From positions 78,887 to 142,886 of the forward strand of contig JAMWCW010000003.1 in the NCBI GenBank assembly GCA_023819145.1: 64,000 bases of DNA, given 5' to 3'. The stretch is from Candidatus Omnitrophota bacterium. GTDB lineage: Bacteria > Omnitrophota > Gorgyraeia > DTHP01. Shown here piece after piece: positions 7,561 through 63,739 of the stretch. The notes under the pieces are model-generated. The model did not search any database, was not told where the DNA came from, and saw only the letters and a list, made by a program, of their open reading frames with translations. The position numbers and the translations under genes were made by a program. How positions within the stretch are numbered: the first letter of the stretch is position 1; each line of letters begins with the position of its first letter.

Positions 7561-8916
7561 ATGGCTAAGAATAAAACTATATTCACCTGTCAGAATTGCG
7601 GATATCGTTCTTTACGCTGGTTGGGGAGATGTCCTGATTGTGAAGAGTGGAATTCTTTTGTAGAAGAAGCAGTTGATTCCTTTGTTTCAGAAGAGCGAGA
7701 AAAATCAGAACTACCCCGTCTTCTCGCAGAGATTAATATTCAGGAAGAAGAAAGAGTTTCTACTGGAATAGAAGAATTTGATCGGCTTTTGGGAGGAGGG
7801 ATTGTTCGGGGTTCAGTAATTCTGGTAGGGGGAAATCCCGGGGTGGGTAAATCTACTATCCTTCTTCAAGTTTCCCATAGTTTGAGCATGAGGGGAAATA
7901 CAGTTTTTTATGTTAGTGGGGAAGAGTCCTTGAACCAGACAAAGATACGTGCAGAGAGGTTGGGTTTAGTGGGAGATAAACTTTTTATAGTTAATGAGAA
8001 TGATGTAGATTTTATAATTGAGGATATTAAAAAAATAAATCCTGGGGTTGTAATTATTGACTCAATACAGATACTCTATAAAAAGGAATTCTCGTCCAGC
8101 ACGGGCACAGTGACTCAAGTACGTGAATGTGCTCAACTACTCACCTCATTAGCTAAAGAGAAGGGAATTTCGATGTTTCTGATTGGGCATGTAACCAAGG
8201 AAGGAGTTTTGGCTGGGCCTAAGGTCTTGGAACATCTGGTGGACACAGTTTTATATTTCGAAGGTGAGGATTTCAGTCAAAGGAGAATATTACGGGCGGT
8301 AAAGAATCGGTTTGGTTCGACTAATGAGATAGCAATCTTTGAAATGTCTGCTAAAGGTTTGATGGAGGTGAGGAATCCTTCAGAGATGTTTTTAGGTGAA
8401 CGTGGAGAAAATATTCCTGGCTCTTTAATCGTTCCTGTTATGGAAGGATTGCGCCCATTATTGGTAGAAATACAGGCATTGGTGGTTTCTTCTCTTCCCG
8501 GGATTGCTCGTAGGCGCTGTATTGGTTTAGATTTTAATCGTATACCATTACTGATTGCAGTAATGGAGAAAAGGTTGGGTTTACATCTTGGTGGTCAAGA
8601 TATTTTTGTCAATGTGGTAGGAGGAATAAAAGTAATGGAACCAGCAGTAGATTTAGGGGTGATTTTGGGGATTGTTTCCAGTTTCCGTAATTTAGCGGTT
8701 TCTAAGGACACAGTGGTTTTGGGAGAAGTGGGGTTAGGTGGAGAGGTGAGGTCGGTAAGTTTTGCGGAACTGCGGATTCAGGAGGCACAGAAACTGGGTT
8801 TTAAGAAGGCGATTTTACCTAAAGGTAACCTTTCTTCCATAAAAGATCTTAAAAAAGATTTTGAGATTAGAGGAGTGAAAAATATTGAAGAAGCAGTAGA
8901 CTTGGTTTTAGGATAA
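7561..8916 (+). CDS. radA: DNA repair protein RadA/Sms
   Basis: N-terminal C4 zinc finger (CQNCGY...CPDCEEW), RecA-like Walker [11 protein letters not shown], Lon-like C-terminal domain. Confidence 0.9.
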
Positions 8917-8939: not shown

Positions 8940-9926
8940 ATGGCTATTGTTTTTTTGAGATTTTTTTTTATTATTTGCTCTTCTTTTACAGGGTATTATC
9001 TTGGCAAATGGGGATGGTTTAGTCAGCCTTTATTTGGGTTTTTTGTTGGGCTTTTAATCTCTACTTTGGTTGTAGTACTAGAGATATTTATGCGCAGGGT
9101 CTCTCTACGTGATTTTTTTGCCATAATCTTCGGCCTTATTCTGGGGTTGGTTACTGCAAAACTTTTGGTTTGGATATTAGAACTTTTTCCTCTTGAACCA
9201 AAAATTCTCTCTTCTTTACGCCTTATCTTTACTTTCGTTTTTTCTTACTTGGGGATAGTGATTGCTTTGAAAGGTAAAGAGGAGTTTAGTCTTTTGATTC
9301 CTTATGTGAAACTTTCTCCTCAGAGTCGGAAAGAGGAGATTATAATTCTTGATACCAGTGTAATTATTGATGGAAGAATTGCCGATATTTTTCAGACCCG
9401 CTTTATAGAAGGCAAAGTGGTCATTCCCCGTTTTGTGTTAAAGGAACTTCAGCAAATTGCTGATTCTCAAGACCATCTGCGCAGGACGCGGGGAAGAAGG
9501 GGTTTGGATATTCTTAATCGGATAAAAAAAATTCCGCGTATCGAAGTAAGGATTCATGAGGAAGATTATCTGGATATTCCCGAAGTAGATGCCAAATTGG
9601 TTAAATTGGCAAAGAGTATTGAGGCAAGAATTCTTACAAACGATTATAATCTGAATAAAATTGCCGAACTTCAAGGAGTGACAGTTCTAAATATAAACGA
9701 CCTTGCCAACGCTTTAAAACCGGTGGTTCTTCCTGGGGAAACGATGGTTGTGAAATTGGTAAAGGAAGGCAAGGAGCATAATCAGGCAGTAGCTTATCTC
9801 GACGATGGAACGATGATTGTGGTAGAAGAAGCTCGCCATCTTTTGGGTAAAACGGTGGACATCACAGTTACTTCTGTTCTCCAAACTTCTGCAGGAAGAA
9901 TGATATTTGGTAAAGTGGGTAGATAA
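8940..9926 (+). CDS. PIN/TRAM-domain membrane protein (YacL-like)
   Basis: N-terminal TM helices, PIN domain ([13 protein letters not shown]), C-terminal TRAM-like domain; occupies the radA-downstream position as in Bacillus. Confidence 0.7.
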
Positions 9927-9932
9927 CAATTT

Positions 9933-10256
9933 ATGCTAACCAGAAGACAGCGCAGCTTTCTCCGTTTCTGGATTAGCACAATAATAATTAGCAAAGGGAT
10001 ATTGTTTTTATTGAATAGGTATCTTATTCTTCTCTACGCTATAATTTTTTTTCTTTTCTTTTTAGGTTTTTCCCTGCGAATTCTTAATCTTTATCCTGGG
10101 GAAAAAACCATTAATTTTAGATGGTCTGGCGGTTTTGATAGGGATACTTTTTGTTTTTCTTGCCGGAGTTTTCGCTTCTACAAAGTTAAGATTTCTTTTG
10201 ATTACTCTTTCCTTTCTTATAGTTCTTCCGCATCTGGCTTATATCGTCAAGAATAA
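9933..10256 (+). CDS. Small hypothetical hydrophobic protein (possibly spurious)
   Basis: 107-aa ORF, low complexity, no recognisable motifs. Confidence 0.15.
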   Translation: MLTRRQRSFLRFWISTIIISKGILFLLNRYLILLYAIIFFLFFLGFSLRILNLYPGEKTINFRWSGGFDRDTFCFSCRSFRFYKVKISFDYSFLSYSSSASGLYRQE

Positions 10257-10277
10257 AGATATCTAAATAAAGTTTAT

Positions 10278-11033
10278 TTGTTGAATATCTTCCTTCCTTG
10301 TGCTAAAATTTTCTCTAAAATGAGAATTTCTGCTATTATCCCTTCAGCAGGAAGAGGTAAGCGCTTGAGGGAAAATAAAGATAAAGTTTTTGTTACCCTG
10401 GATAACAAACCCATTATTTATTATACACTTAAGAGTTTAGAAGAAATAGAAGAGATAGGAGAAATTATTTTGGTGGTCAGTGGGCGGTCGTTCATGTATG
10501 CAAAGGATGAATTTCTAAAAAAAATTAGATTTACAAAGGTTAAAAAGGTTGTAAAAGGAGGACCTACACGCACCGATTCTGTATGGAATGGACTTAAAGA
10601 AATAGACAAAACAGCAGATTTAATTTTAGTCCATGATGGGGCAAGGCCTTTTATTAATAAGATTTTACTTAAAAAGGTAATAGAGGCAGGAGCAAGGTTT
10701 GGAGCGGCGGTATTAGGAGTTCCCATTAACGCGACGATAAAAAAGGTTAAAAGCGGTTCAGTCGTAGAGACAGTTTCTCGGGAATATATTTGGGAAACTC
10801 AGACACCGCAGGTGTTTAGAAAAGATTTGATTGTATCTTGTTATCAACAGGCAATTAATGAGGGATTTAAGCCTACTGATGATGCTCAAGTTTTAGAACA
10901 TTATGGGAAAAAGGTTAAGATAGTGGAAGGCAGCATTTTAAATATAAAGATTACTACCCCCGAGGATTTATTTCTGGCAAAGGCAATTTTAAAATATCAA
11001 GTAGCAAAGAAAACGTTTAAGTCAATTCGTTAA
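10278..11033 (+). CDS. ispD: 2-C-methyl-D-erythritol 4-phosphate cytidylyltransferase IspD
   Basis: AIIPSAGRGKR motif; the real start is probably the internal M at about 10320 (MRISAIIPSAG). Confidence 0.85.
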   Translation: MLNIFLPCAKIFSKMRISAIIPSAGRGKRLRENKDKVFVTLDNKPIIYYTLKSLEEIEEIGEIILVVSGRSFMYAKDEFLKKIRFTKVKKVVKGGPTRTDSVWNGLKEIDKTADLILVHDGARPFINKILLKKVIEAGARFGAAVLGVPINATIKKVKSGSVVETVSREYIWETQTPQVFRKDLIVSCYQQAINEGFKPTDDAQVLEHYGKKVKIVEGSILNIKITTPEDLFLAKAILKYQVAKKTFKSIR

Positions 11034-18352: not shown

Positions 18353-19873
18353 ATGGATAAGTTATATATCACTACACCGCTTTACTATGTTAACGCTACT
18401 CCCCATATTGGTCATTCTTATACCAATATTGCTGCCGATTGTTTAGCAAGGTTTATGCGTCTTAAAGGTAAAGAGGTATATTTTTTAACCGGAACCGATG
18501 AACATGGTCAGAAAATTTTTCGTTCTGCGCAAAATTCCGGTAAGAGTCCTCAGGAATTTGTAAACAGCATTGTTCCTCATTTTATTGATTTATGGAAAAC
18601 CCTTTCCATTTCTTATAATGACTTTATTCGCACTACTGAAGAAAGACACAAAAAGACAGTAAGTTTTGCTTTATCAAATCTTTATGATAAAAAAGATATT
18701 TACCTTACAGAATATAGTGGTTGGTATTGTACTCCCTGTGAAACATTCTGGACAGAGACCCAACTTGATTCTCCCCTTTGTCCTGATTGCCTGCGACCTT
18801 TAGAGGAACTAAAAGAAAAAAATTATTTTTTTCGTTTAGAAAAATACCGCAATTGGTTAATTAAACATATTGAGGAACACGCTTCTTTCATAAAACCCAT
18901 AAGCCGTAGAAACGAAATTCTTAAATTTTTAGAAAAACCCCTCAATGACTTATGCATTTCTCGTCCAAGAACACGTTTAGAATGGGGAATTCCTATCCCT
19001 TTTGATTCCGGATATGTTACCTATGTTTGGTTTGATGCTTTAATTAACTACATTTCCGCAATTGGTTTTGGTCAAGATGAGGGAAAATTTAGGAAATATT
19101 GGCCTTGTGATATTCATTTAGTAGGGAAAGATATTTTACGCCAGCATACAATTTACTGGCCAATAATGCTTCATGCTTTAGGAATTGAACTTCCAAAAAC
19201 TGTTTTTGCTCATGGTTGGTGGATGGTAGGAGAAGGGAAGATGTCTAAATCTAAAGGAAATATTGTTGACCCATTGGAGATGGTTAAAAAGCATGGTGAA
19301 GATGCCTATCGTTATTTTCTTTTAAGAGAAATTCCTTTTGGTCAAGATGGAAATTTTAGCGAGTCTGCTTTAATTTCACGCATAAATTCCGATTTAGCCA
19401 ATGATTTGGGGAATTTATATTTTAGGACCTTTGGAATGCTTGAAAAGTATTTTTCAGGAAAAATTCCTGAAGTTTCTCCTTTAGATAAAGTTTTTAAAGA
19501 AAAATTGGGAAAATTACCTCAAGAGTTAGAAGAAGCAATAGAAGATTTAAACTTTCAAGAAATGCTTATTTCTATTTGGGAGTTAGTTAATCTTGCCAAT
19601 AAATTTATTGAAGATTCTCGCCCTTGGGAACTTTCCAAAGAAAAAAAGATAGATGAACTTTCCTCCTTTCTGTATAACCTTATAGAAATTCTGCGTATTG
19701 TAACCATCTGTGTTTATCCCTTTATGCCTAAGTTTGCAGAAAAAGTCTGGAGACAATTAGGACAAAGAAAAGAACTTCAAGAAGTAAGTTTCTCAGAAAT
19801 TTATCAATGGGGTTTATCTATTCCAGGTACAGAAATAGAAAAAGGAACCCCTCTATTCCCAAGAATTATTTAA
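18353..19873 (+). CDS. metG: Methionyl-tRNA synthetase (short form)
   Basis: HIGH (PHIGHSYT) and KMSKS motifs, Cys4 knuckle; 506 aa. Confidence 0.9.
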   Translation: MDKLYITTPLYYVNATPHIGHSYTNIAADCLARFMRLKGKEVYFLTGTDEHGQKIFRSAQNSGKSPQEFVNSIVPHFIDLWKTLSISYNDFIRTTEERHKKTVSFALSNLYDKKDIYLTEYSGWYCTPCETFWTETQLDSPLCPDCLRPLEELKEKNYFFRLEKYRNWLIKHIEEHASFIKPISRRNEILKFLEKPLNDLCISRPRTRLEWGIPIPFDSGYVTYVWFDALINYISAIGFGQDEGKFRKYWPCDIHLVGKDILRQHTIYWPIMLHALGIELPKTVFAHGWWMVGEGKMSKSKGNIVDPLEMVKKHGEDAYRYFLLREIPFGQDGNFSESALISRINSDLANDLGNLYFRTFGMLEKYFSGKIPEVSPLDKVFKEKLGKLPQELEEAIEDLNFQEMLISIWELVNLANKFIEDSRPWELSKEKKIDELSSFLYNLIEILRIVTICVYPFMPKFAEKVWRQLGQRKELQEVSFSEIYQWGLSIPGTEIEKGTPLFPRII

Positions 19874-20516
19874 GGGATAACCGAAATCGGTAAGATAAAA
19901 ATTAAATGGGATATAAAAGATAAATATATTATAGAGAGGGTTTTAGGACATTACCAAAAATTTCTCTCTAAAAGTAAGAAAAAGGATATTGAGCTTAAGG
20001 TCTATAACCGAAATTTTTCCTTCCTAAAAAATTCCCTCTGATCACTACGCAAAGCTGGGATTATTTAAGAACAAAAGATAAATTATATTTTTGTTTTTCT
20101 CGTGGAGAAAATAGTTCGGTTGCTTGCGTATCTTGTGATTTTAAAAAGATAGATTTTTATACCCCTAACAAACATGGCCAATTACTTCTTTATCTTTTCC
20201 CTGAACTTCTTTATAGTCTAATTCTTCCTGAATTCAATGGCCTTCTAATTCATGCCGGTGGGGTAAAATTAAATAAAAAAATATTTGTTTTTTAGCCCCT
20301 ACAGAAGGAGGAAAATCAACTTTAGCAAAGCTTGCTTTAAAGAAAGGTTTTCCTGTTTTAAATAACGACCGCATAATTTTAAGAAAAATTAGAAATAAAT
20401 TTATTGCCTTTGGTAATCCTTGGCATGGTGAAGTAAGAAAGACTTCCTCGGATTATGGTAAGATAAAAGAATTATTCTTCTTAGAAAAGGCAGAGAAAAT
20501 TATATTAAGGAAATAA
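19874..20516 (+). pseudogene. HprK-related kinase (RiPP-cluster-associated HPr kinase-like P-loop protein), disrupted by at least two frameshifts
   Basis: Three frame segments translate to ...KWDIKDKYIIERVLGHYQKF..., ...LLIHAGGVKLNKKIFVF* and ...TEGGKSTLAKLALKKGFPVLNNDRIIL.... This matches the HPr kinase C-terminal fold (LxHASxV ... GxSGxGKSTLA). The frame switches fall in A6/A7 homopolymers at about 20026-20031 and 20275-20281. Confidence 0.45.
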
Positions 20517-20677
20517 ATAAACAAGAAATGTTTCTTTACCTTTTAGGAAATACTTTCTGTTTTAGGGGAGATAAAGACCATTACAAAAAGTTGTAGATAT
20601 TATTTTAGAATTGATAGATAATATAAAAGGATATACTTTAGGTTTTGACCCCACTGTAAGTATCTGGAGGTATTTAG

Positions 20678-20977
20678 ATGAAAGATTTAGATAAAGTTTT
20701 CAAGAAAAATACTGAGCTTGCCTGGAGAATAATTGATAATGAGACAATGATCATCCCCCTTGATGAGCAAACTGTAGATACCGAAAAAATTGAAGTTTTA
20801 AATCCTACTGCAACGTGTATCTGGGAATTAATTAATGGGGAAAATACATTAAAGGAGATAATTGAAAAAATATGTGAAGAATATGAAATTGAATATGAAG
20901 AGGCGGAAAAAGAGGTGCTCGGATTTATAAGAGATCTAAGGAATAAGAATTTGATTACCTTAGGAGGTGAGCGATGA
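20678..20977 (+). CDS. PqqD-family peptide chaperone (RiPP recognition element)
   Basis: 99-aa acidic protein with PqqD-like core (ETMIIPLD...VLNPTATCIWELINGENTLKEII...GFIRDLRNKNLI); stop overlaps the next ATG (ATGA). Confidence 0.65.
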   Translation: MKDLDKVFKKNTELAWRIIDNETMIIPLDEQTVDTEKIEVLNPTATCIWELINGENTLKEIIEKICEEYEIEYEEAEKEVLGFIRDLRNKNLITLGGER

Positions 20978-21111
20978 AGAAAAATAAGAAGAAATGGGAG
21001 AAGCCCAAGGTGAAAGAGATGAAGCTAAGGAGGGGAATAAGTCTTTACCTTTGCGACAAGTTTCCCCAGACGGCGCCCTACCATGATATTTGTGCTTCAG
21101 ACTTCTCATGA
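20974..21111 (+). CDS. Candidate RiPP precursor peptide, 45 aa (MKKNKKKWEKPKVKEMKLRRGISLYLCDKFPQTAPYHDICASDFS)
   Basis: Not in the six-frame track (<60 aa). AGGAGGTG RBS at 20962-20969 is 4 nt upstream; ATG is coupled to the PqqD stop; 22 nt before the radical-SAM gene. Lys-rich leader-like N-terminus, two Cys in the C-terminal half. Confidence 0.4.
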   Translation: MKKNKKKWEKPKVKEMKLRRGISLYLCDKFPQTAPYHDICASDFS

Positions 21112-21133
21112 TTTATACTAAAATTATATATGT

Positions 21134-22173
21134 ATGGTCTCAATTTGGTACAGAGGTGTTTTAAATAGAGTTACTGAAAATCTTATTCCTTTTCACTGCC
21201 TCTTAGAGCTTACCTACAGATGCAATCTCAAATGCCTGCACTGTTATGTGGTAAGGGATACTCAAAAAGAACTTACCACTCAGCAATTCTTAAGTATCTT
21301 AGATCAACTTAAGGAATTAGGAACTTTGTATCTCATCATTTCTGGAGGAGAACCGTTAGTAAGAACTTATTTTTTTGAAATTTGCAAACACGCTAAGAAG
21401 AATAATTTTGCATTACGAATATTTACGAATGCTTCCCTAATTAATACAAATATTGCGGAGAGGATTAGAGAACTTAAACCTTTAGTAGTAGAGGTGGGTT
21501 TATACGGGTTTGAAAAGACGCACGATGAAATAACCTAGGTTAGAGGTTCGTTCAAAAAGACTGTAGAAGGAATAAAGCTATTTAAGAAAAGAAATATCCC
21601 AGTTCTGGCAAAATGCGCTCTTTTAAATAAAAATATTTATGAAATTTGGAAATTGAAAGATTTTGTAGAAAAGGAGTTAAAAATAAAAATGCGGGGTATA
21701 GGAGGAGGTTTAGCTTTATCACCTTGTGATAATGGAGACTTAAGACCTTTAAATTATCTACCTACAGATGAGCAATTGAAATGGTATATGAAAGAAGAAA
21801 AAATATCTGAGGAGGAATCAAAACAGCCACCGGATTTTAGAAAACGCCGACTTAATTTTAACCTTTGTGGTTCAGGGATAAGCACTGTTAATATTACTCC
21901 CCATGGAGAAATCAATCCCTGTGTGCAAATAAGAACAAAAAATAAAATAAAATAAATCACAGAAGTATCAAAGATATCTGGCAAAATGCAGAGGAGTTTA
22001 AGTTACTTAGGCAAACGAAGATTAGAGATTTAGAAGAATGTCAAGATTGTGAATATGAAAAATATTGTTTCCGCTGTGCCGGGATTTCCTATCTACTTAC
22101 CGCTTCCTTCATCAAATCCTATCCTGATGCCTGCAGGCAAGCACGTATAAGAAAAGAAATTTACGAGGGCTAA
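21134..22173 (+). pseudogene. Radical SAM/SPASM-domain peptide-modifying enzyme, interrupted by an in-frame TAG (21536-21538) and a frameshift in an A-rich run (~21940-21956)
   Basis: CNLKCLHC (CxxxCxxC), GGEPL, HDEIT*VRGSFKKTVEGIKLF, and SPASM motifs (CGSGISTVNITPHGEINPC; CQDCEYEKYCFRCAG) in a shifted frame. Confidence 0.6.
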
Positions 22174-22246
22174 TTTATTTTACAACCATCTTCTTTCCTG
22201 CTATAATTTTAAACTAACTATTTCCTACTAACTACTATCTCCTAAT

Positions 22247-23666: not shown

Positions 23667-24698
23667 ATGTTTAAAAAATTGATTTTGGAAAATCAGGTTT
23701 ATTTTTTACTCTTGTTTTTAAGTTTGGTTTTGGGTATTTTTTCTTATCTAAATCGCGATTACTTAGGAATATCGCCGTTAGAAGAAGCTTTTAAAGGAGA
23801 AATTTCGCAATATGAAAACATTAGTTCCGAAGGTTTTGTTAAAAATATCGAACAGAATATTCAGATTTCTTATCTTCTAAAAATTACTTTTTTCGTTGGG
23901 TTTTTATTTTTTATAATGGGGGTATATTTTTGTTTTTCTTTTTTATTTGCTTTATTTAGAGGAAAGGTCACGCTTTTTTCTCAAGATTTCCCTGCTGTAA
24001 ATTGGCAAATTTTAGATATTTTTCGGGTAGTTATAGTCATAATTTTCTTTACAAGTTTTTTAAAGGTAATTGAGCCAATTTTTTTTAGAATATTTGGAAT
24101 TAACATCTTTGTCCGTTTTATGCTCCATGTCCTATTGTTTGACATTTTTTGCTTGGGGTTAATTATCTATTTTGTATATCAAAAACATCGCTCAACGCTT
24201 ATCAGTCTTGGTCTGGGCTTGAGTAATTTTATAAACAATATTTTGCTTGCTTTCCTTCACTATTTAGGAGTAATTCCTCTTCTGTTTTTATCTATATTTT
24301 TCTCTTTTTCTTTCACTCAACTCTTTAAATATAAACCGGAAATTTCTCCGCTCTTCTATTTCTTTTTTCTTCCTCAGCCAAAATTACTGATTTTCTTTAC
24401 TACAATTTTTATTGCGATTATCGGTCCCGTAATCGAAGAGATTTTCTTTAGAGGGTTTTGCTATCCCGCTTTACGCAGTAAAATTGGTCCTTTAAAGGCA
24501 ATGGTTTTAGTTTCTTTATTTTTTGCACTTTTACATATGAATGTGATAGGCTTTTTACCCATTTTTACTTTGGGTTTACTTCTTGTTTATCTCTATGAGA
24601 AGACACATTCCCTTTTCTCTTCAATTGGTGTACATATAATTCATAATAGTTTAATTCTCTATCTTGTTTTTCTCTATCGAGCTCTTTTGCTAAAATGA
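23667..24698 (+). CDS. CPBP-family intramembrane glutamic protease (CAAX protease/bacteriocin-processing family)
   Basis: Polytopic membrane protein with the EExxxR motif (VIEEIFFRGF) and FxxxH motif (FFALLHMN). Confidence 0.75.
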   Translation: MFKKLILENQVYFLLLFLSLVLGIFSYLNRDYLGISPLEEAFKGEISQYENISSEGFVKNIEQNIQISYLLKITFFVGFLFFIMGVYFCFSFLFALFRGKVTLFSQDFPAVNWQILDIFRVVIVIIFFTSFLKVIEPIFFRIFGINIFVRFMLHVLLFDIFCLGLIIYFVYQKHRSTLISLGLGLSNFINNILLAFLHYLGVIPLLFLSIFFSFSFTQLFKYKPEISPLFYFFFLPQPKLLIFFTTIFIAIIGPVIEEIFFRGFCYPALRSKIGPLKAMVLVSLFFALLHMNVIGFLPIFTLGLLLVYLYEKTHSLFSSIGVHIIHNSLILYLVFLYRALLLK

Positions 24699-25801
24699 GT
24701 TCTCGGCTAGCCATTTTAAAGTGTTTTGATTACTCCCCTGCATTTATATCAGAGTCAATAGAAAAACTTTTTTATCTTTTAGGGGGGATAGAGAAGTTTG
24801 TTAAACCACAGGATAAAATTTTTATTAAACCCAACCTTTTATCAGCAACCTCCCCCCACAGAGGAATAACTACCCATCCTTTATTGGTTAAGGAAGTGGC
24901 AAAGAGATTCAAAGAAAAAGGAGCAGAAGTGTTTATTGGAGATAGTCCTGGGGGAGGGATAAATATCGATGAGGTTTATGAAAAAACGGGAATGCAAAAG
25001 GTTGCTAAAGAACTGGGATTAGAATTGGTTAAATTTGATAAGATTAAAAAGGTTAAAAATTACCCTCTTGCAGAGATAGTTCTTACATGCGATCGTTTTA
25101 TTTCCCTGCCAAAATTAAAGACACATTCCCTAATGGTAATTACGGGAGGAATAAAAAATTCTTTTGGACTTGTTCCGGGCATATATAAAACCGAGCTGCA
25201 TTTAAGGTTTCCTCGTCCAAAAGAATTTAGTAAAGTTATTGTAGATGTATTCAGTTTAAGAAAACCGGATTTGGTAATTGTAGATGGAGTTGTTTCTATG
25301 GCAGGAGAAGGTCCGGCGGGAGGAGTCTTGAAAAATACAGGAATAATTCTAGGAAGTTCTGATGCGGTAGCAATAGATTCGGTTCTGGCAAAACTTATGG
25401 GAATTAATCCCTTTAAAATTCCTACTATCTACGAAGCATATAAAAGAGGATTGGGGAAAGTAGATAAAATAGAAATGATGGGCGAGGATTTGAATTCCGT
25501 TTTATTTAAAGATTTTTCCTTACCTCGCTATTCTTTTCTCAATATTATTCCTCAAACAATTCTCAAATTGGGGGGAAGCTTAATTAGAACTTATCCTTTT
25601 ATAAATGATGTTCTATGTCAAAGGTGTGGGATTTGTATTAAAGGGTGTCCTGCAGGAGCAATTAAAATGGCGTCCCAAAAGATAACAATTGATTATAAAT
25701 TTTGTATAAAATGCCTCTGCTGTTATGAATTCTGTCCTCATAAAGCAATTTCTTTAAAGAAGGGAATTCTTTTAAAGTTATTGGACTTGGTAAGGAGATA
25801 A
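24695..25801 (+). CDS. DUF362-domain iron-sulfur protein with tandem 4Fe-4S ferredoxin motifs
   Basis: CQRCGICIKGCP and CIKCLCCYEFCP ferredoxin-type clusters; start overlaps the CPBP stop (ATGA). Confidence 0.65.
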   Translation: MSSRLAILKCFDYSPAFISESIEKLFYLLGGIEKFVKPQDKIFIKPNLLSATSPHRGITTHPLLVKEVAKRFKEKGAEVFIGDSPGGGINIDEVYEKTGMQKVAKELGLELVKFDKIKKVKNYPLAEIVLTCDRFISLPKLKTHSLMVITGGIKNSFGLVPGIYKTELHLRFPRPKEFSKVIVDVFSLRKPDLVIVDGVVSMAGEGPAGGVLKNTGIILGSSDAVAIDSVLAKLMGINPFKIPTIYEAYKRGLGKVDKIEMMGEDLNSVLFKDFSLPRYSFLNIIPQTILKLGGSLIRTYPFINDVLCQRCGICIKGCPAGAIKMASQKITIDYKFCIKCLCCYEFCPHKAISLKKGILLKLLDLVRR

Positions 25802-39498: not shown

Positions 39499-40464
39499 AT
39501 GGCAGTAAAAGAGTTAGTTTTAGAGAAATTGGATGTGAATAAATTTATTGAAGAAAAGGTAAAAGAGATTAAAGAAACTGTAGGTAAAGAGATTGCTATA
39601 AACGCTTTATCAGGTGGGGTAGATTCTTCAGTAGTTACCATGCTTGGGTTCAAGGCCCTTGGAGAACGTCTTAAAACATATTTTATAGAGAATGGACTAA
39701 TGCGTGAGGGAGAGTCAGAGAAGGTAGTGTCTCTCTTTAAGCGCTTAGGGGTTCCAGTAGAGATTATAGACGCACGTAAAGAATTTTTTTCTGCTTTAAA
39801 GGGAATAACTGATCCTGAGGAGAAGCGCGAGGCCATTACCAGAGCATTCTATCGTGATGTTTTTGTAAAGTTGGTGAAAAAAACAGGAGCAAAGTTTCTT
39901 CTGCATGGAACAATTTATACGGATATTGAGGAAACGGTAGCGGGGATAAAAAGACAGCACAACATATTAGAACAATTGGGCATAGATACCGAAGAACAAT
40001 TTGGTTACAGAGTTATTGAACCGCTTTTACAATTGCGTAAACCTGCGGTGCGAGAAGTTGCTCGAGCTTTGGGTTTGCCGGAGGAAATATACAAAAGACC
40101 TCCTTTTCCCGGTCCTGCCCTCTCTGCGAGAGTGATTGGAGAAGTTACCCCCGAGAAAATTAATTTAGTAAGAAAGTCAACAAAAATTGTTGAGGAAGAA
40201 CTTTCTGAGGTAGGAGCTTTTCAGTATTTGGCAGTTTTACATGAAGATAAAGTTACGGGGATAAAAAACGGAAAAAGAGAGTTTGGTTACCAGATTGAAG
40301 TAAGGTGTTGGGATAGTAAAGATGCGGTAACCGCTTCACCTACGGAACTTTCTTATGAAATATTATTTAGGCTAGCAGAGAAAATTACTGAAGCGATTCC
40401 TCAAGTAGTAAGTGTAACTTATAATATAACTTCTAAACCTCCTTCTACCATAGAAGTGGTTTAG
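39499..40464 (+). CDS. GMP synthase PP-loop ATP-pyrophosphatase subunit (GuaA subunit B-like), stand-alone
   Basis: SGGVDSSV PP-loop, FIENGLMREGE, DPEEKREAI, LHGTIYTDIEE, FPGPALSARVIGEVT; these match the GuaA C-terminal domain. No glutamine amidotransferase subunit is adjacent. Confidence 0.65.
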   Translation: MAVKELVLEKLDVNKFIEEKVKEIKETVGKEIAINALSGGVDSSVVTMLGFKALGERLKTYFIENGLMREGESEKVVSLFKRLGVPVEIIDARKEFFSALKGITDPEEKREAITRAFYRDVFVKLVKKTGAKFLLHGTIYTDIEETVAGIKRQHNILEQLGIDTEEQFGYRVIEPLLQLRKPAVREVARALGLPEEIYKRPPFPGPALSARVIGEVTPEKINLVRKSTKIVEEELSEVGAFQYLAVLHEDKVTGIKNGKREFGYQIEVRCWDSKDAVTASPTELSYEILFRLAEKITEAIPQVVSVTYNITSKPPSTIEVV

Positions 40465-40471
40465 GTTAAAG

Positions 40472-40675
40472 ATGAGCGATATTTTTAAGATTTTATTGAT
40501 TCTTTTTATGCTCCTTTTTCTTCTTCCGTCGTTTATTCGCTTAGCAGGTAATTTCTTTGAGCATTTGGTTTTCGGTAATATGACAAAGACTGAGTTCCTA
40601 GAACATTTTCGCGAGTTTAGTTATGGCCCTACTTTAGATTTCTATAAGGATTTATTCTATAAACTAGCCCACTAG
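40472..40675 (+). CDS. Small hypothetical membrane protein
   Basis: 67 aa, one TM helix, no motifs. Confidence 0.15.
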   Translation: MSDIFKILLILFMLLFLLPSFIRLAGNFFEHLVFGNMTKTEFLEHFREFSYGPTLDFYKDLFYKLAH

Positions 40676-40839
40676 AATTAGGCTTCTGTTTCCCAAATAT
40701 CAACGGAGCCTCTTTCAAGATTACCTTTCCTAAAGAATATCTTTCCTACCTTGACAAAACATTCGATATAAGCCATATCTTATATGTAAGAATGTCTGAG
40801 AATTTTTTCCGATTTAAAATGAATCTTTCGTGATTTAGG

Positions 40840-42909
40840 ATGTTCAAAAATTTATTATATATCATTATAATTATTGCTTATTCTGTTTTTTCTCCGTATA
40901 TATCTGAGGCAAGGCGGAGTAAAGATAGTAGAGCCTCTGCTATAACACCTTACGCATATGAAATCCGTTTTAATAAAGCAAACCATACCTATACCGTTAA
41001 TGGCGAAAAATACCCTTCTGTCCATGCAATCTTAAACCTTTTGGATAAGCCAGCACTTATCCCTTGGGCGATTAAAACGGTAATCACATATTTAGCAGAG
41101 AATAATATAACTCCCAATCCCAAAGATTCTTACCGCTATTATCAAGAGGCTTTGAGAGAAAGGGATAGAGCAGCGACAACCGGGACAGAGACGCACAGTT
41201 TTATAAGCCAAGCATTAAGTGGGCAGAAACATGCTTCCAGTTCACAAGACACCGCTCCTTATGTATCCTTAGCTGATAGAGGAGGTTTTCAGGCTGCATT
41301 TGCGAAATGGTTTAATGAGGCGCAACCAACCTTGGTTGCTTCAGAGGCAGTAGTAATATCACCTACCTATAAGTACGCAGGAACTATAGATGCGCTTTGT
41401 TTAATTCAAGGAGAATTGTGGCTAGTTGATTTTAAGACTTCCCCGAAAATTTACGATGACCATATTCTCCAGATAGCAGCCTATCGTCAGGCAATAGAAG
41501 AAATGGGTGGGTATTGGGTTTTATCAGGGGATAAGTATGTTTTTCATTCGTTGGAGGGCAAAAGAATTGCTCATACAGGTATAGTGCGTTTAGATAAAAG
41601 TAGTGGAGAAGTTGAATTTAAGAAATTAACAGAAGAAGAATACAGTGTGGCAGTAAATAAATTTCTGCTTTTGAGTAAGTATTATAATTTACATAATCCA
41701 GAAGATGTTTCCCGTTTTGGAGTAGTTGCGCCTTCGGGGTTAGAGGATAAGGCAACAGCAACTAATATTTTTGATAATCTGCTTGGCCTTGTCATCCAGG
41801 CAATGCGCGATTGTGGAACGACTGAAGAGGAAATTAGTAGATACATTGCCGAGGAACCTTATTTTTTCTTTCTTCCCGAAGTAAGAGCTATTTTACCCAA
41901 CGCCATTATGGCATTAAAGAATTACGGCATAGGAAGTTTTTCTGAACAGTGGAAAGTTTTTAAAGAGATTATTGATAATACCCGCCACAGAGATGTCAAA
42001 TATAGTGCTACATTTCTTGAAGTCCTCACAGACAGATTAATTAAAGGTGAGAAATTGGAAGATATTTTAAGGGATTTTAAAGATATGTGGCATTTTGGTT
42101 TTGTTTGGGCTACACGCTTTTCCAAAAAAAGCTGGGACAGTTTGATTACCAACAGGAAATATTTGGAAGAGAAGATACAGCAAGGTTTGCCTATTACTTA
42201 TCCCAACCCTCTGGCAATTCAAATTTATCCTGTAAGCGATTTCAATGGAGCTTTTAATAGTGATTTAGAAACCAGCGCTCTTATAGACCATGGGTATTTT
42301 GTGCTATATTACGAGGTGGATAATTTATTTGAGTTGTTAACAGCATTAGTAGATTCTACTGACCCTCAAAATGGTGTTAAGGCCTCTATAATTTGTTTGA
42401 ATGGTCATGGTAATCCCCAGGAAGTAGGAGAATATATTGCTGATTTATCTGATTTTAGGCTATTAGAAAAGTTTGGAGTAAAAGAATGCCTAGAAGAAGG
42501 AGGTTCTATAATTCTCTACTCCTGTGATACGGGTATTAACGGAGGTATAGTCAGTGCGCTATTTAATTTATTCCGACAGGCTAATTATATTTATGCTCCC
42601 ACAGGCAGACCCACTGGCTTAAAAATACAGTTTGATATTAATGGGGGGATAATCGAGGTTGAATATGAAGGTTCAGAGGTATATGATTTATTCAAGGAAC
42701 CAATTTACCAAAAGCCCACCGCCGAAGATATCCAAAGAGAGATTAGGTTATATTACGGTCTACTGGGGATTGACTTTAGAAAAATAAACATTCCGCAGTT
42801 GGTTTCCGAAATACAACGAGAGATTGAATTGCAATTTTATATGTTGGGATATATTATTTTTTCCGATTATCTCTCTCTCATCTATCAAACCTGCGATAAA
42901 TACAAATAA
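40840..42909 (+). CDS. Secreted multidomain protein: N-terminal PD-(D/E)XK (RecB/lambda-exonuclease/Cas4-like) nuclease domain plus C-terminal module with a His-Gly...Cys dyad
   Basis: Signal peptide MFKNLLYIIIIIAYSVFSPYISEA. Nuclease motifs GTETH, GTIDAL, LVDFKTS, QIAAYRQA (D...D-x-K...QxxxY). C-terminal module contains ICLNGHGNPQ ... ILYSCDTG. Confidence 0.5.
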   Translation: MFKNLLYIIIIIAYSVFSPYISEARRSKDSRASAITPYAYEIRFNKANHTYTVNGEKYPSVHAILNLLDKPALIPWAIKTVITYLAENNITPNPKDSYRYYQEALRERDRAATTGTETHSFISQALSGQKHASSSQDTAPYVSLADRGGFQAAFAKWFNEAQPTLVASEAVVISPTYKYAGTIDALCLIQGELWLVDFKTSPKIYDDHILQIAAYRQAIEEMGGYWVLSGDKYVFHSLEGKRIAHTGIVRLDKSSGEVEFKKLTEEEYSVAVNKFLLLSKYYNLHNPEDVSRFGVVAPSGLEDKATATNIFDNLLGLVIQAMRDCGTTEEEISRYIAEEPYFFFLPEVRAILPNAIMALKNYGIGSFSEQWKVFKEIIDNTRHRDVKYSATFLEVLTDRLIKGEKLEDILRDFKDMWHFGFVWATRFSKKSWDSLITNRKYLEEKIQQGLPITYPNPLAIQIYPVSDFNGAFNSDLETSALIDHGYFVLYYEVDNLFELLTALVDSTDPQNGVKASIICLNGHGNPQEVGEYIADLSDFRLLEKFGVKECLEEGGSIILYSCDTGINGGIVSALFNLFRQANYIYAPTGRPTGLKIQFDINGGIIEVEYEGSEVYDLFKEPIYQKPTAEDIQREIRLYYGLLGIDFRKINIPQLVSEIQREIELQFYMLGYIIFSDYLSLIYQTCDKYK

Positions 42910-60221: not shown

Positions 60222-60635
60222 CTAGTGAAGCACCTGTCTATTTTTTGCTCCTTGACGTAATTGCAAGGCTCGAGGAGGTCCGATAATCGCAGAGTAAATT
60301 ATGGCAGTTTCTAATTCATGGGGAGAGATTGTTTCTCCCTTTTCTGTTTTAGATAGTTTTATTTCTTCAACCTTTTCTTTTTTTTCTAAGTTTATCTCTT
60401 GAATTTTTTCAACTTCTAATTCTTGCGCTTTTTCTTTTTCTTCAAACACTACCTCTGCAGGAAGATTTTCTTCCCCGTAGGGTATTTCCAGAGTTTCCAA
60501 AAGGTCTTCTAAGGGGTTTTTGGGGGAAGTTTTTTCTTCAACAGGTGTATGTCTTTTCTTGCGTTCTAAAATTTGTCCCACCGATTGTAAGACAAAGAGG
60601 ATAACGATAAAAAATAGAAAAAATAAATTCTCCAT
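60222..60635 (-). CDS. Hypothetical N-terminally anchored Glu/Lys-rich protein
   Basis: One TM helix followed by a charged low-complexity region; downstream of floA on the - strand. Confidence 0.3.
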   Translation of the reverse strand: MENLFFLFFIVILFVLQSVGQILERKKRHTPVEEKTSPKNPLEDLLETLEIPYGEENLPAEVVFEEKEKAQELEVEKIQEINLEKKEKVEEIKLSKTEKGETISPHELETAIIYSAIIGPPRALQLRQGAKNRQVLH

Positions 60636-60683
60636 TACCTAAATTACCTCTTTACAAACGGATTGTTATAGATAAATTTATAT

Positions 60684-61667
60684 TTAATCTTTTTCTTTCT
60701 TTTTCTCCTCAGTCGGTTTACCAATTCGCTCCCGCATCTCCGTATCTGCTTGGATGTTTCGTAGCGAATAATAATCCATTACTCCCAGTTTTCCCTCTTT
60801 AAAGGCATAAGCAATTGCTTTAGGAATTTCTGCCTCTGCTTCTACCACCTTTGCTCGCATCTCTTGGACGCGTGCTTTCATTTCCTGCTCTTGGGCTACG
60901 GCAAGAGCCCTTCTTGTCTCCGCTTTTGCCTGGGCAACTTTTAAATCTGCTTCTGCCTGGTCTGCCTGAAGCTGAGCGCCGATATTTTTCCCTACATCAA
61001 CATCCGCAATATCAATGGAAAGAATCTCAAAAGCAGTGCCCGAATCCAACCCTTTTGCCAAAACAGTTTTAGAAATTAAATCAGGGTTCTCTAAAACATT
61101 TTTATAACTCTCGGCAGAACCGATGGTAGTAACAATTCCTTCCCCAACACGGGCGATAATCGTTTCCTCAGTTGCTCCTCCTACCAGCCGTTCGATATTG
61201 GCACGCACCGTTACGCGTGCTTTTGCCTTTAATTCTATGCCATCTTTGGCGACTGCTGCCAGAACTCCTTCTTTAGGGGCATCAATTACTTTGGGATTTA
61301 CTGAAGTTTTCACTGCATCCAAAACATCCCGTCCCGCAAGGTCGATAGCACAGGCCCGTTCAAATTTTAAGTCGAGATTTGCTTTATCTGCAGAGATTAA
61401 TGCTTTAACGACACGAATTACGTCTCCGCCTGCAAGATAATGCGCTTCTAATCCATCCAATTTTATAGAAAGCCCAGCTTTATGGAGCATAATTAGACCG
61501 GGAACAATAATCCGCGGGTCAACATTGCGTAGGCGCATGCCGATTAGACTGAAGATAGAAATTCTTACTCCTGCGGCAATAGCCGCAATCCAGAGTCGCA
61601 CGGGAATGAAATAGCCAAAGAGAAAAAGCGTTGCTACAATAACTATAGCGATGACAAATACAGGCAT
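60684..61667 (-). CDS. floA: Flotillin-like protein FloA (SPFH/band-7, YqfA family)
   Basis: Near-colinear match by eye to the FloA family pattern (GVRISIF..GMRLR...AHYLAGG...[10 protein letters not shown]...[11 protein letters not shown]...[19 protein letters not shown]...QADQAEAD). Confidence 0.85.
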
Positions 61668-61707
61668 TTTGCACCTCCATTCTTGGTTAAATGTTAACTG
61701 GTTTTAA

Positions 61708-62187
61708 CTAAATTTGTTTGACGATGACACGATTGCCTTCTGTTTTTATGACTAAAACTTGTTTATTCTGTTCAATGAATACCCCTCCTTCAGAGAGTGC
61801 ATCGATTCTTTTCCCTTCAATTAAGCATATTCCAACAGGGCGAAGAGGTGAGATGGTTTTCCCTATTTTGTTGACTAAACTACTTAAATCGCCTTTAAAG
61901 GGTTTAAAACCTGCTTCTTTCGTTTCCTGATGTTCCAAACGGAGTTTTTTCCAGATTTTGGTTTTGGGAAAGAGCCTCCATGATAAAATAATAAGCATCA
62001 AACTGCCTAAAGAAACAATCAATCCTAATCCAAGGTTTAATTTTGTCCAAGCGAAATAGGAAGCAAGGATTAAAGAGGCAATTCCACTCATTCCCAGTAT
62101 GCCAAAACCGGGAATAATTAAAATCTCAATGGCTAAAAGCACATAGCCTAATAAAATAAGCGTTAAAACCAATAACCAATTAGGCAT
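61708..62187 (-). CDS. NfeD-family membrane protein (short form, OB-fold C-terminus)
   Basis: Three TM helices plus a C-terminal beta-barrel (GKTISPLRPVGICLIEGKRIDALSEG); paired with floA. Confidence 0.7.
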   Translation of the reverse strand: MPNWLLVLTLILLGYVLLAIEILIIPGFGILGMSGIASLILASYFAWTKLNLGLGLIVSLGSLMLIILSWRLFPKTKIWKKLRLEHQETKEAGFKPFKGDLSSLVNKIGKTISPLRPVGICLIEGKRIDALSEGGVFIEQNKQVLVIKTEGNRVIVKQI

Positions 62188-62221
62188 TATCTTATTCCTT
62201 GATTTATTTGTAAATCAGGAA

Positions 62222-63739
62222 TTAAATCGATTTAACTACTACTTTTGCTCCTTCGATACTTATGACTTTTACCTCTTTATCCTTTTCAATAAATTCACCT
62301 TCGCTGATTACATCCAGGACTTTTCCCGAGAATTCTGCCTTACCCGATGGTCTAAGATAGGTAATAGTTTTACCTATTTTACCGATTAAATTTTCTTTAG
62401 TCAAATCAATAGTACTGTAACCTTCTTCTTTAGATTCTTTCTCTTGTAAAATTATTCTTTTCCAGAGTCCGGTGCGAGGAAGAAAATTTATGGACAACAG
62501 TAACACTACCAAAGTAGCAAAGAAAGAGTAAACAACAACCTGAAATGCTTGAAGTAGTTCTCTGTGCGGGGTATGCAAGGGGTGTTTAATTAAAGCTAAG
62601 AAAATGCTAACCAAAAGCAGTATTCCTCCTGAGATTCCTGCGAAGCCAAATCCGGGAAAGACAAAAATTTCTAAAAAGATTAGAATCAGTGCAAGGATGA
62701 AAAATATTATCTCCGTCCAGTTTGCTAGACCTACAAGATAATGTCCCCAGAAAAATAGTGCTAAAGAAATTACCCCCAAGGTTCCTGCTATCCCCCAGCC
62801 AGGGATTTTTATCTCAAAGATAATTCCCAAGAAACCCAACGTTAAAAGTAAGGAACTCACAATTGGATGGGTCAAGAAGCGCACCAGATTTTCCGACCAG
62901 CTGGGTTTAGGTTCAAACATTTCTTTTTCTTTTAGATTTAAAAACGCAAGGAGTTCTTCGCGCTGAGAAATAATTTTTTTTACCATCCCCAATTCTTTTG
63001 CCTCTTCGGCAGTGAGATTGAGAAGTTTACCTTTTTCTGTCACGGTTTTTATTATTTTTATTTTTTCTTCTCCCAGTTCACTTTTTTTCTCTGCAACTTC
63101 CTCAGGGTAAAGGATAAAATTTTCTTCACCGATTCTTACCAATTTTAATTCTAAATCTTTATCCACAAAAGCCTCTGCCAATTTAGGACTGTGTTTATTT
63201 GCTTCTGCGGTAGCTTTAAATTTCGCTCTTAAAGCGGAAATGGTTTTTTCGTCTTTTACTTCTTCTTCATTACCCATGCCTATGGCACGGGGTTCTGCGG
63301 AGCCAATACTTGAACCAGGAGTCATGTAAATTTCTTCACAGGCAAGAGAAATCAATGCCCCTGCAGACCAGGCTTCACCTAACACAAATGCCTTTACGGG
63401 AATGGGCTTTAGCTCTTCCAAGGATTTAACAATTTCCCCAGCAGCATCCACTCTTCCCCCAAAAGTATCAATCTCTACTATTACTGCAGAGGCGTGTTCT
63501 TCCTTTGCTTCTCTGGTTACGCGTTTAACAAATGCCGAAAGCCCCAAGTCAATTACCCCTTTTATGGGGACGACATAAACCGCACTTTTTTCCTGACTAT
63601 ATCCGGAATTTAATAACCCCCCTAACCCGTAACCAAGAACCAGTAACCAAAGAAATAATTTGGGAAATCTCTTAAAAATCTGTGCAATCATAGTTATTAA
63701 TATACCATTCAAATCTGGATGTGTCAATTGTATTGACAT
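62222..63739 (-). CDS. NfeD-family membrane-bound ClpP-class serine protease (YqeZ-like long form)
   Basis: ClpP-like domain (VVPIKGVID...EIDTFGGRVDAA...GEAWSAGALISLAC), multi-TM region, C-terminal OB domain. The true start is probably the internal M (MIAQIF...) at 63691. Confidence 0.8.
   Translation of the reverse strand: MSIQLTHPDLNGILITMIAQIFKRFPKLFLWLLVLGYGLGGLLNSGYSQEKSAVYVVPIKGVIDLGLSAFVKRVTREAKEEHASAVIVEIDTFGGRVDAAGEIVKSLEELKPIPVKAFVLGEAWSAGALISLACEEIYMTPGSSIGSAEPRAIGMGNEEEVKDEKTISALRAKFKATAEANKHSPKLAEAFVDKDLELKLVRIGEENFILYPEEVAEKKSELGEEKIKIIKTVTEKGKLLNLTAEEAKELGMVKKIISQREELLAFLNLKEKEMFEPKPSWSENLVRFLTHPIVSSLLLTLGFLGIIFEIKIPGWGIAGTLGVISLALFFWGHYLVGLANWTEIIFFILALILIFLEIFVFPGFGFAGISGGILLLVSIFLALIKHPLHTPHRELLQAFQVVVYSFFATLVVLLLSINFLPRTGLWKRIILQEKESKEEGYSTIDLTKENLIGKIGKTITYLRPSGKAEFSGKVLDVISEGEFIEKDKEVKVISIEGAKVVVKSI

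Follow-up and report, generated by a model that had tools for sequence, protein, structure and literature searches.

A probable early-stage remnant of a peptide-modification cassette at the metG-tatD junction of an Omnitrophota genome

Here we describe a 2.3-kb locus within a 64,000-nucleotide stretch of DNA (the window) from a single Candidatus Omnitrophica bacterium metagenome-assembled genome (MAG; NCBI). [quoted passage not shown] Between the end of metG (19873) and the start of tatD (22247) lie 2.37 kb without any long open reading frame (ORF), in which three-frame translation revealed four genes on the + strand, spanning 19874-22173: a kinase-like gene, a PqqD-family gene, a 45-aa ORF and a gene for a radical S-adenosylmethionine (rSAM) enzyme with a SPASM domain. 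An earlier note, made from the letters of this DNA alone, had reported the same four elements in the same 2.3 kb, and all of them were found where it had placed them; its assignment of the quartet was borne out by hidden Markov model (HMM), family and fold evidence. It had also called the metG-tatD gene order Firmicutes-like, a setting that does not hold for an Omnitrophota MAG. The proteins of the window are all singleton clusters among ~15 billion proteins, and an exact-protein look-up of its PqqD and 45-aa peptide in the contig index returned no match. Loci of relatives are given here by number; L001 is the contig of P0001, an intact 344-aa homologue of the rSAM enzyme. The features of the cassette are as follows.

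19874..20691, + strand: kinase-like pseudogene of the ScmC family with an HprK/PEPCK-type P-loop fold, in five reading-frame pieces (tblastn with the L001 orthologue, five pieces at 57-73% identity; DNA alignment with L001 and L004)
19874..19876, + strand: lost start codon, GGG in the window, GTG in L001 and ATG in L004; one base is gone between the metG stop and this codon
20012..20035, + strand: frameshift 1, a net 4-nt deletion whose exact site is ambiguous; the A6 run at 20026-20031 may be involved
20288..20293, + strand: frameshift 2, T6 against T7 in L001 (1-nt deletion), creating a TAG at 20293-20295
20301..20321, + strand: P-loop TEGGKST (Walker A), its G-K-S-T invariant in the 40-sequence family alignment
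20364..20366, + strand: AAC (Asn) replacing the family-invariant Asp of the N-D-D-R motif (family alignment)
20494..20498, + strand: frameshift 3, a 1-nt deletion (alignment with L001 and L004)
20578..20582, + strand: frameshift 4, a 1-nt deletion outside any homopolymer (alignment with L001 and L004)
20678..20977, + strand: intact PqqD-family gene for a stand-alone RiPP recognition element (RRE) of 99 aa (MCM8783654; PF05402; 74% identity to the L001 orthologue)
20974..21111, + strand: intact putative precursor-peptide ORF of 45 aa, MKKNKKKWEKPKV... CDK...C...DFS (MCM8783655, annotated 'hypothetical protein'; member of a family of 16 peptides)
21134..22173, + strand: pseudogene of an rSAM/SPASM peptide maturase (PF04055, PF13186; 74% identity to intact P0001)
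21536..21538, + strand: in-frame amber codon, TAG in the window, CAG in L001 and TCT in L004
21939..21957, + strand: rSAM frameshift; the AAAAT repeat has gained a unit (net +2 nt relative to L001 and L004), which creates a TAA at 21953-21955

Alignment to L001 and L004 mapped seven disabling lesions in the cassette: the start codon, four deletions, the nonsense codon and the repeat gain. The kinase-like gene was indeed frameshifted, as had been noticed before, but the proposed 'at least two frameshifts in A6/A7 runs' became four deletions in addition to the lost start codon, and the break assigned to the A7 run at 20275-20281 sits in the T run at 20288-20293, ten bases downstream. In keeping with the lost start codon, no + strand ORF is listed for 19874-20038. 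Both lesions described earlier in the rSAM gene were confirmed, the amber codon being a CAG to TAG change relative to L001 and the single frameshift corresponding to the added AAAAT unit; a 134-aa fragment of this gene is annotated in NCBI as MCM8783656. Reassignment of TAG was ruled out, as this codon is the stop of 15 of the 58 ordinary ORFs of the window. We also observed that the N-terminal fragment of the kinase-like gene (19871-20038) now lies in the metG frame through the one-base loss after the metG stop, with only the TAA between them.

The lesions are very probably genuine, and the two broken genes young pseudogenes. The rival explanation is that the organism has an intact cassette and that faults of assembly or sequencing, for example in homopolymers or through a chimeric MAG consensus, produced the frameshifts and the stop; we consider this very unlikely. 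The T7 to T6 deletion and the possible involvement of an A6 run speak for it, as does the existence of only one assembly. However, the window holds 233 homopolymers of at least six bases, eight of them in the cassette at an equal density (3.6 per kb in the window versus 3.4 in the cassette), and the ~225 outside break no gene: the remainder of the window is clean, as the earlier note had said, with 58 long, tightly packed ORFs intact and large gaps at the cassette only. Five random indels would all fall within this 3.6% of the sequence with a chance of ~6e-8. Furthermore, three lesions are other than homopolymer indels (the start-codon substitution, the C to T nonsense change and the 5-nt repeat gain of AAAAT), and these, like the non-homopolymer deletion at ~20580, are atypical types of error. 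Homopolymer assembly errors, which had been offered as the alternative, are therefore a poor account of the locus.

Relative-rate tests, in which we counted the amino-acid changes unique to the window and to L001 (window:L001) against an outgroup, gave 45:25 for the kinase-like (ScmC-like) protein with L165 as outgroup (p=0.02) and 45:20 for the rSAM enzyme with L004 (p=0.003). None of the counts for PqqD (5:10 and 10:6), PSP1 (14:16) or metG (29:19) was significant. Relaxed constraint thus appears in precisely the two broken genes, an acceleration that counts against the artefact explanation. The pseudogenization that had been suggested as one of two readings is favoured by this pattern, together with the confinement of the lesions to 2.3 kb and their non-homopolymer types. 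Two observations pull the other way. At the family positions conserved at 90%, the window deviates at 3/47 and 6/95, no more than typical members do; since deviations are not elevated at conserved sites, the inactivation would be recent and the acceleration signal is modest. Moreover, the lesions are known from a single MAG assembly of the organism and not from reads, which leaves a residual doubt. With both cassette enzymes apparently dead in the window, no modified product would be expected from this locus.

The PqqD gene and the 45-aa ORF are intact, as had been claimed, and the ATGA overlap between the PqqD stop and the start of the peptide ORF was confirmed and recurs in the relative L167. 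Both ORFs retain Shine-Dalgarno-like GGAGG sequences, and the peptide keeps all the hallmarks of its family, with Ser as its C-terminal residue. A possible explanation is that selection has kept both in function, either together with enzymes from other parts of the genome or through an unmodified or otherwise processed peptide. Intact ORFs, the retained GGAGG and ATGA coupling, the unaccelerated rate of PqqD and the complete set of peptide hallmarks all agree with it, and yet we regard it as rather unlikely. None of the seven lesions falls within the 434 of 2291 nt that the two ORFs occupy, an outcome with a chance of ~0.23, and because of this chance their intactness is statistically unremarkable. 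PqqD is short, so its rate test is of low power, and a further ScmC-like gene, SPASM rSAM or ORF with the leader is absent from the 64-kb window. Most simply, PqqD and the peptide ORF are leftovers that have so far not been hit.

The cassette had been described as wedged into a conserved junction, and it had been proposed that the metG-tatD interval of relatives be compared for intact versions. L001 holds such an intact cassette at the same junction. Over more than 14 kb this contig and the window are collinear, with amino-acid identities of 57-84%; the flanking orthologues are all full length, and the gene order of the contig runs holB, PSP1, metG, ScmC-like gene (275 aa), PqqD, a 52-aa peptide, an S8 peptidase, a TPR protein, MNT/HEPN toxin-antitoxin genes, a second peptide, rSAM, tatD, an Rce1-like gene and DUF362. 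In L165, PSP1, metG and an aminotransferase gene precede a ScmC-like gene, PqqD and two peptides, and L168 carries a peptide, rSAM, VapBC and tatD. The GC content of the cassette is 32.6%, against 30-35% in the flanks, and its proteins are 61% (kinase-like), 74% (PqqD) and 74% (rSAM) identical to those of L001. From its place beside metG and/or tatD in L001, L165 and L168 and the flank-like GC content, the cassette is therefore an inherited feature of the clade at the metG/tatD locus.

That the cassette was recently inserted, by horizontal transfer, where metG and tatD had been contiguous could be argued from the position of the cassette between two housekeeping genes and from its other contexts in distant Omnitrophota, where a compact cassette stands beside glmS (L006, L007) or after an epimerase gene (L166, L167). 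Nevertheless, a cassette at the same position in the collinear L001, its adjacency to metG in L165 and to tatD in L168, a GC content like that of the flanks and identities to L001 (61-74%) within the range of the neighbouring genes (57-84%) make insertion very improbable, and intact or differently decayed copies beside metG and/or tatD in these relatives contradict the wedged-in view.

Lesions were also found in relatives. The rSAM gene of L168 (280-1317) has a TGG to TAG change and its peptide is seemingly truncated; in L167 (9364-9591) the rSAM gene is cut to its last 75 codons; and in L166 (8001-9537) the kinase-like gene alone remains, the PqqD, peptide and rSAM genes having been lost. Decay is recurrent and arose independently in these relatives. 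That the window lacks S8 peptidase and TPR genes was not taken as a sign of decay: L006 and L007 share its simple ScmC-PqqD-peptide-rSAM layout, and no remnants of S8 or TPR genes are found in the window. As a separate observation, toxin-antitoxin modules have inserted inside or beside the cassette of several relatives (L001 6568-7744; L004 923-1374 and 2063-2670; L168 1378-1994; L165 6402-6839); they include MNT/HEPN (twice), a HicA toxin with an upstream partner ORF, Phd/ParE, VapBC and a DUF6036-type nucleotidyltransferase.

Next to the lesions, the identity of each component was examined. Word-indexed homologues of the kinase-like protein number 53, and almost all carry precomputed hits to PF27840 (ScmC); the hits in L001, L165, L166 and L167 are marked 'faint' or 'weak'. 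A local Pfam scan of the window translation and two intact orthologues gave no ScmC match, PF27840 being perhaps absent from that copy of the database. An AlphaFold2 model reached a predicted local distance difference test score of 94.7; both fold similarity and a Walker A P-loop were found, as expected of an HPr kinase/PEPCK-like P-loop fold. One His, the G-K-S-T of the P-loop, one Asp and the P-W of a GNPWHGE motif are invariant in the family. A full HMMER scan recovered 1,778 clusters at 50% identity with E<=1e-30 and 11,428 with E<=1e-10, and a profile search of the PDB with the family returned generic P-loop matches only. When 40 family members were compared with NCBIfam, matches were weak and all below cutoff: HprK_rel_B in 37/40, HprK_rel_A in 31/40, ScmC in 29/40 (best E-value to TIGR04249 5.6e-12) and HPr(Ser) kinase in 8/40. 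The repaired window translation scored 19.1-19.5 bits (E~4e-4) to TIGR04352/TIGR04355, in the P-loop region only and against a cutoff of 200; to ScmC TIGR04249 it gave no match at E<=0.01 (cutoff 125 bits), and the L004 orthologue reached 13.7 bits. The HprK-like assignment of the earlier note stood, with scores below the cutoffs of the two HprK-related models and with precomputed PF27840 hits in intact orthologues. The protein is HprK-fold and ScmC-like, but outside the curated families by NCBIfam thresholds.

The PqqD assignment was upheld by PF05402 (61.3 bits against a gathering threshold of 23.4). The protein is under every NCBIfam cutoff, the nearest model being TIGR03859, specific for pyrroloquinoline quinone (PQQ), at 40.5 versus 46. 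For the rSAM enzyme, the repaired translation scored above cutoff with PF04055 (80.5 bits) as well as with PF13186 (30 bits), as had been expected of an rSAM/SPASM protein; its CxxxCxxC motif is CNLKCLHC at 21221-21244 and the SPASM cysteines lie within 21860-22140. The homologues P0001-P0010 are full-length Omnitrophota proteins of 323-349 aa with 65-74% identity to it. Its NCBIfam neighbours are NirJ, ScmE, PqqE and MftC, every one far below cutoff, and it also scored under cutoff with the sactipeptide and ranthipeptide maturase models (AlbA 92/850, StsB 89/625 and SkfB 71/300 bits). The enzyme has no fused N-terminal RRE. Among PDB sequences SkfB matched best (E 2.8e-20), followed by PqqE, SuiB and CteB.

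The Lys-rich, leader-like N-terminus previously noticed in the 45-aa ORF proved to be a KKKWxKP family leader with invariant W and P. Motif and profile searches yielded 16 distinct peptides, all from Omnitrophota-type loci, with the leader consensus M-(K)n-K-K-W-x-K/R-P-h-x-E. In a 12-sequence alignment K, W, P and Cys are invariant and the cores are otherwise divergent; the core has an invariant Cys, with CxK in 15/16 and a second Cys in 15/16. Of the 16 peptides, 14 have Ser or Thr as their last residue (binomial P ~1e-12 with a 10% background, 4e-10 with the 15% of the core composition), and one of the two that lack it belongs to the decayed L168 locus. The 45-aa ORF is short, lies beside maturase genes and joins a leader that is conserved to a core that varies across loci, in the manner of a predicted RiPP precursor. 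No description of the KKKWxKP family was found in the literature searched.

A precursor search upstream of PqqD in distant loci gave a candidate family specific to Acidobacteriota only and no general rule. These candidates are conserved small ORFs that lie just upstream of PqqD and end in ...PMPFKLTPGA(L/V)xVTGMQLQ(N/I) (L053 ~7849-7986, L061 7854-7928, L064 7902-7982 and L081 7842-7916).

The kinase-like gene is part of a wider cassette. Across 82 loci belonging to many phyla, a PqqD gene lies within 6 kb of the ScmC-like gene in 68 and an rSAM gene does so in 69, the usual order being PqqD-rSAM-ScmC. A nucleotidyltransferase ORF of the NTP_transf_5 type (PF14907) was found in 56 of 168 loci, many of them short (e.g., L006 344-1519), and is absent from the closest relatives of the window. 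A metagenome scan with the ScmC-like alignment gave, among the matches listed, distant relatives only (<=38% identity). No literature characterisation of a cassette of ScmC-like, PqqD and rSAM/SPASM genes was found, in agreement with the earlier claim of an uncharacterised class.

The SynChlorMet system comprises the rSAM/SPASM paralogues ScmE and ScmF with ScmC and ScmD. Our cassette resembles this system (TIGR04248 ScmD, TIGR04249 ScmC, TIGR04250 ScmE, TIGR04251 ScmF; PF27840) in combining an HprK-like, ScmC-type protein with PqqD and rSAM/SPASM, and ScmE is the best or second-best NCBIfam match of its rSAM enzyme. However, its scores are under the respective cutoffs (ScmC <=13.7/125, ScmD 30/100, ScmE 121-126/400, ScmF 68/400), a single rSAM gene takes the place of the ScmE and ScmF pair in the window and most related loci, the gene order is ScmC-PqqD-peptide-rSAM, and a distinct precursor family can be identified. 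No mention of the SynChlorMet cassette was found in the literature. Within the ScmC/PqqD/rSAM type, which has been defined bioinformatically, the cassette is a divergent variant with a single rSAM.

The HprK-related kinases A and B (TIGR04352, TIGR04355) are alike in having a PqqD partner (TIGR04353, PqqD_rel_X, the HPr-rel-A system PqqD family peptide chaperone), and 31-37 of the 40 family members match them weakly in the P-loop region (E 1e-10 to 1e-3). With ~19 bits in the window clade and a best family E of 1e-10 against a cutoff of 200 bits, the kinase-like protein is not a member. The rSAM/SPASM maturases that work with a stand-alone PqqD and the thioether-forming sacti/ranthi-synthases (PqqE/PqqD, MftC/MftB, SkfB, AlbA and CteB) share the CxxxCxxC motif, the SPASM domain and Cys in the precursor core; our enzyme differs in scoring below all equivalog cutoffs and in lacking a fused N-terminal RRE.

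Two experimentally studied pathways use related kinases. In paeninodin-type lasso peptides, HprK-like kinases add a phosphate to the C-terminal Ser of the precursor, and this phosphate is then glycosylated by a nucleotidyltransferase (PMC8498205). The clusters of PadeK and its relatives likewise join an HPr-kinase-fold enzyme and a PqqD-type RRE, the nucleotidyltransferase partner is frequent in the wider cassette family, and a C-terminal Ser as phosphosite parallels the 14/16 precursors of our family that end in Ser/Thr. In contrast to lasso clusters, the cassette has no lasso cyclase or B2 protease, its class-defining enzyme is the rSAM/SPASM protein, and its kinase activity is a predicted one. 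In the LPP RiPPs of Bacillota, the HprK-like LppK phosphorylates Ser3 of the precursor core, with a discrete RRE (LppB) and an NTP transferase (LppN) in the clusters (PMC13381572). The combination of kinase, discrete RRE and NTP transferase, and a phosphorylated core Ser, are points of likeness. LPP clusters, for which no rSAM is mentioned (PMC13381572), differ by a leader peptidase resembling signal peptidase and by an MsbA-type exporter; the phosphosite is Ser3 and not the C-terminus, and both phylum and precursor family are others.

By analogy with these systems, the stand-alone PqqD would bind the Lys-rich leader (KKKWxKP-h-x-E), as suggested by the conservation of the leader and by the adjacent or overlapping precursor gene. 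The rSAM/SPASM enzyme may then crosslink the core by radical chemistry, with a thioether that starts from one or both conserved Cys as the likeliest outcome, and the HprK/PEPCK-fold P-loop protein may use ATP to phosphorylate a precursor Ser/Thr, most likely the near-universal C-terminal one. In many distant relatives the adjacent NTP_transf_5 nucleotidyltransferase would subsequently decorate the phosphate. We infer Ser/Thr phosphorylation and an rSAM crosslink in the intact relatives, the former because of the lasso and LPP precedents for HprK-like kinases and the C-terminal Ser/Thr of 14/16 precursors. Tentatively, then, the intact relatives might form a new, Omnitrophota-restricted RiPP class whose KKKWxKP-leader peptide is crosslinked at Cys-x-Lys...Cys by the rSAM enzyme and C-terminally phosphorylated, and thousands of cassettes with ScmC, PqqD and rSAM (and NTP_transf_5) might likewise make phosphorylated, nucleotidyl- or glycosyl-decorated, radical-crosslinked peptides.

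Several findings count against this proposal. The chemistry proposed for all cassette members is drawn from sequence and analogy; that of the rSAM enzyme is not readable from its sequence, the SkfB match spanning the rSAM core only; and the kinase-like protein is below the NCBIfam cutoffs for HprK_rel_A/B and ScmC. In addition, the Acidobacteriota candidate precursors have neither Cys nor a terminal Ser/Thr, so the C-terminal rule fails there and may be specific to the clade of the window. We also weighed the idea that the product is a peptide-derived cofactor, as in PQQ or mycofactocin, and not a secreted or bioactive RiPP, which would explain the missing protease and exporter of the minimal cassette. 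Such minimal cassettes (window, L006, L007) indeed lack a dedicated peptidase or transporter, PqqD stands alone, and the rSAM enzyme scores comparably against the PqqE and MftC models. Unlike cofactor precursors, however, the cores are hypervariable except for CxK, the second Cys and the terminal Ser/Thr, and in several loci the divergent precursors number two or three; moreover, L001 and L004 do have S8 peptidases. A cofactor is accordingly an improbable product.

The flanks of the cassette contain the following features.

18353..19873, + strand: metG, methionine-tRNA ligase, upstream flank (NF008900, 726 bits; 83% identity to the L001 orthologue); its TAA stop abuts the cassette
22179..22207, + strand: promoter-like TTTACA-17-TATAAT, 11/12 matches, with TG, 5' of tatD, in a stretch conserved in L001
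22247..23614, + strand: tatD fused to a TIGR04038 radical-SAM domain, downstream flank (HMM scans)

The promoter-like site is part of the downstream flank and not of the cassette, in which Rfam and terminator scans found nothing relevant. TatD is a 455-aa protein with an in-frame fusion to the TIGR04038 'TatD-associated radical SAM' domain; the TatD of L001 is a plain protein of 258 aa, and no TIGR04038 domain occurs there before the following gene. Right after tatD lie genes for an Rce1-like/CPBP intramembrane protease and then a DUF362 4Fe-4S protein (23667-24698 and 24695-25801 in the window; 9973-12116 in L001). CPBP proteins are frequent companions of bacteriocin loci. All 54 consecutive long ORFs of positions 1-60091 are on the + strand, and four at 60222-63739 are on the - strand. 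Outside the cassette only two stretches of more than 250 nt are free of long ORFs (9926-10278 and 40464-40840), neither with a tRNA or Rfam match.

As a dead copy, the cassette of the window is of limited direct value, but it shows cleanly how a biosynthetic cassette begins to be lost from the streamlined genome of a candidate phylum, with parallel and independent losses in relatives. The comparison with these relatives assigns a recognisable precursor family to one branch of the ScmC-type cassettes, ties them to HprK-like peptide kinases that have been established by experiment in the lasso and LPP pathways, and reveals a large family of kinase-like proteins. If the tentative proposal were true, the combination of kinase phosphorylation and radical crosslinking in one peptide would be previously undescribed. 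It offers a concrete, testable prediction for these genes, which are widespread and have no known product: +80 Da and -2 Da on defined residues.

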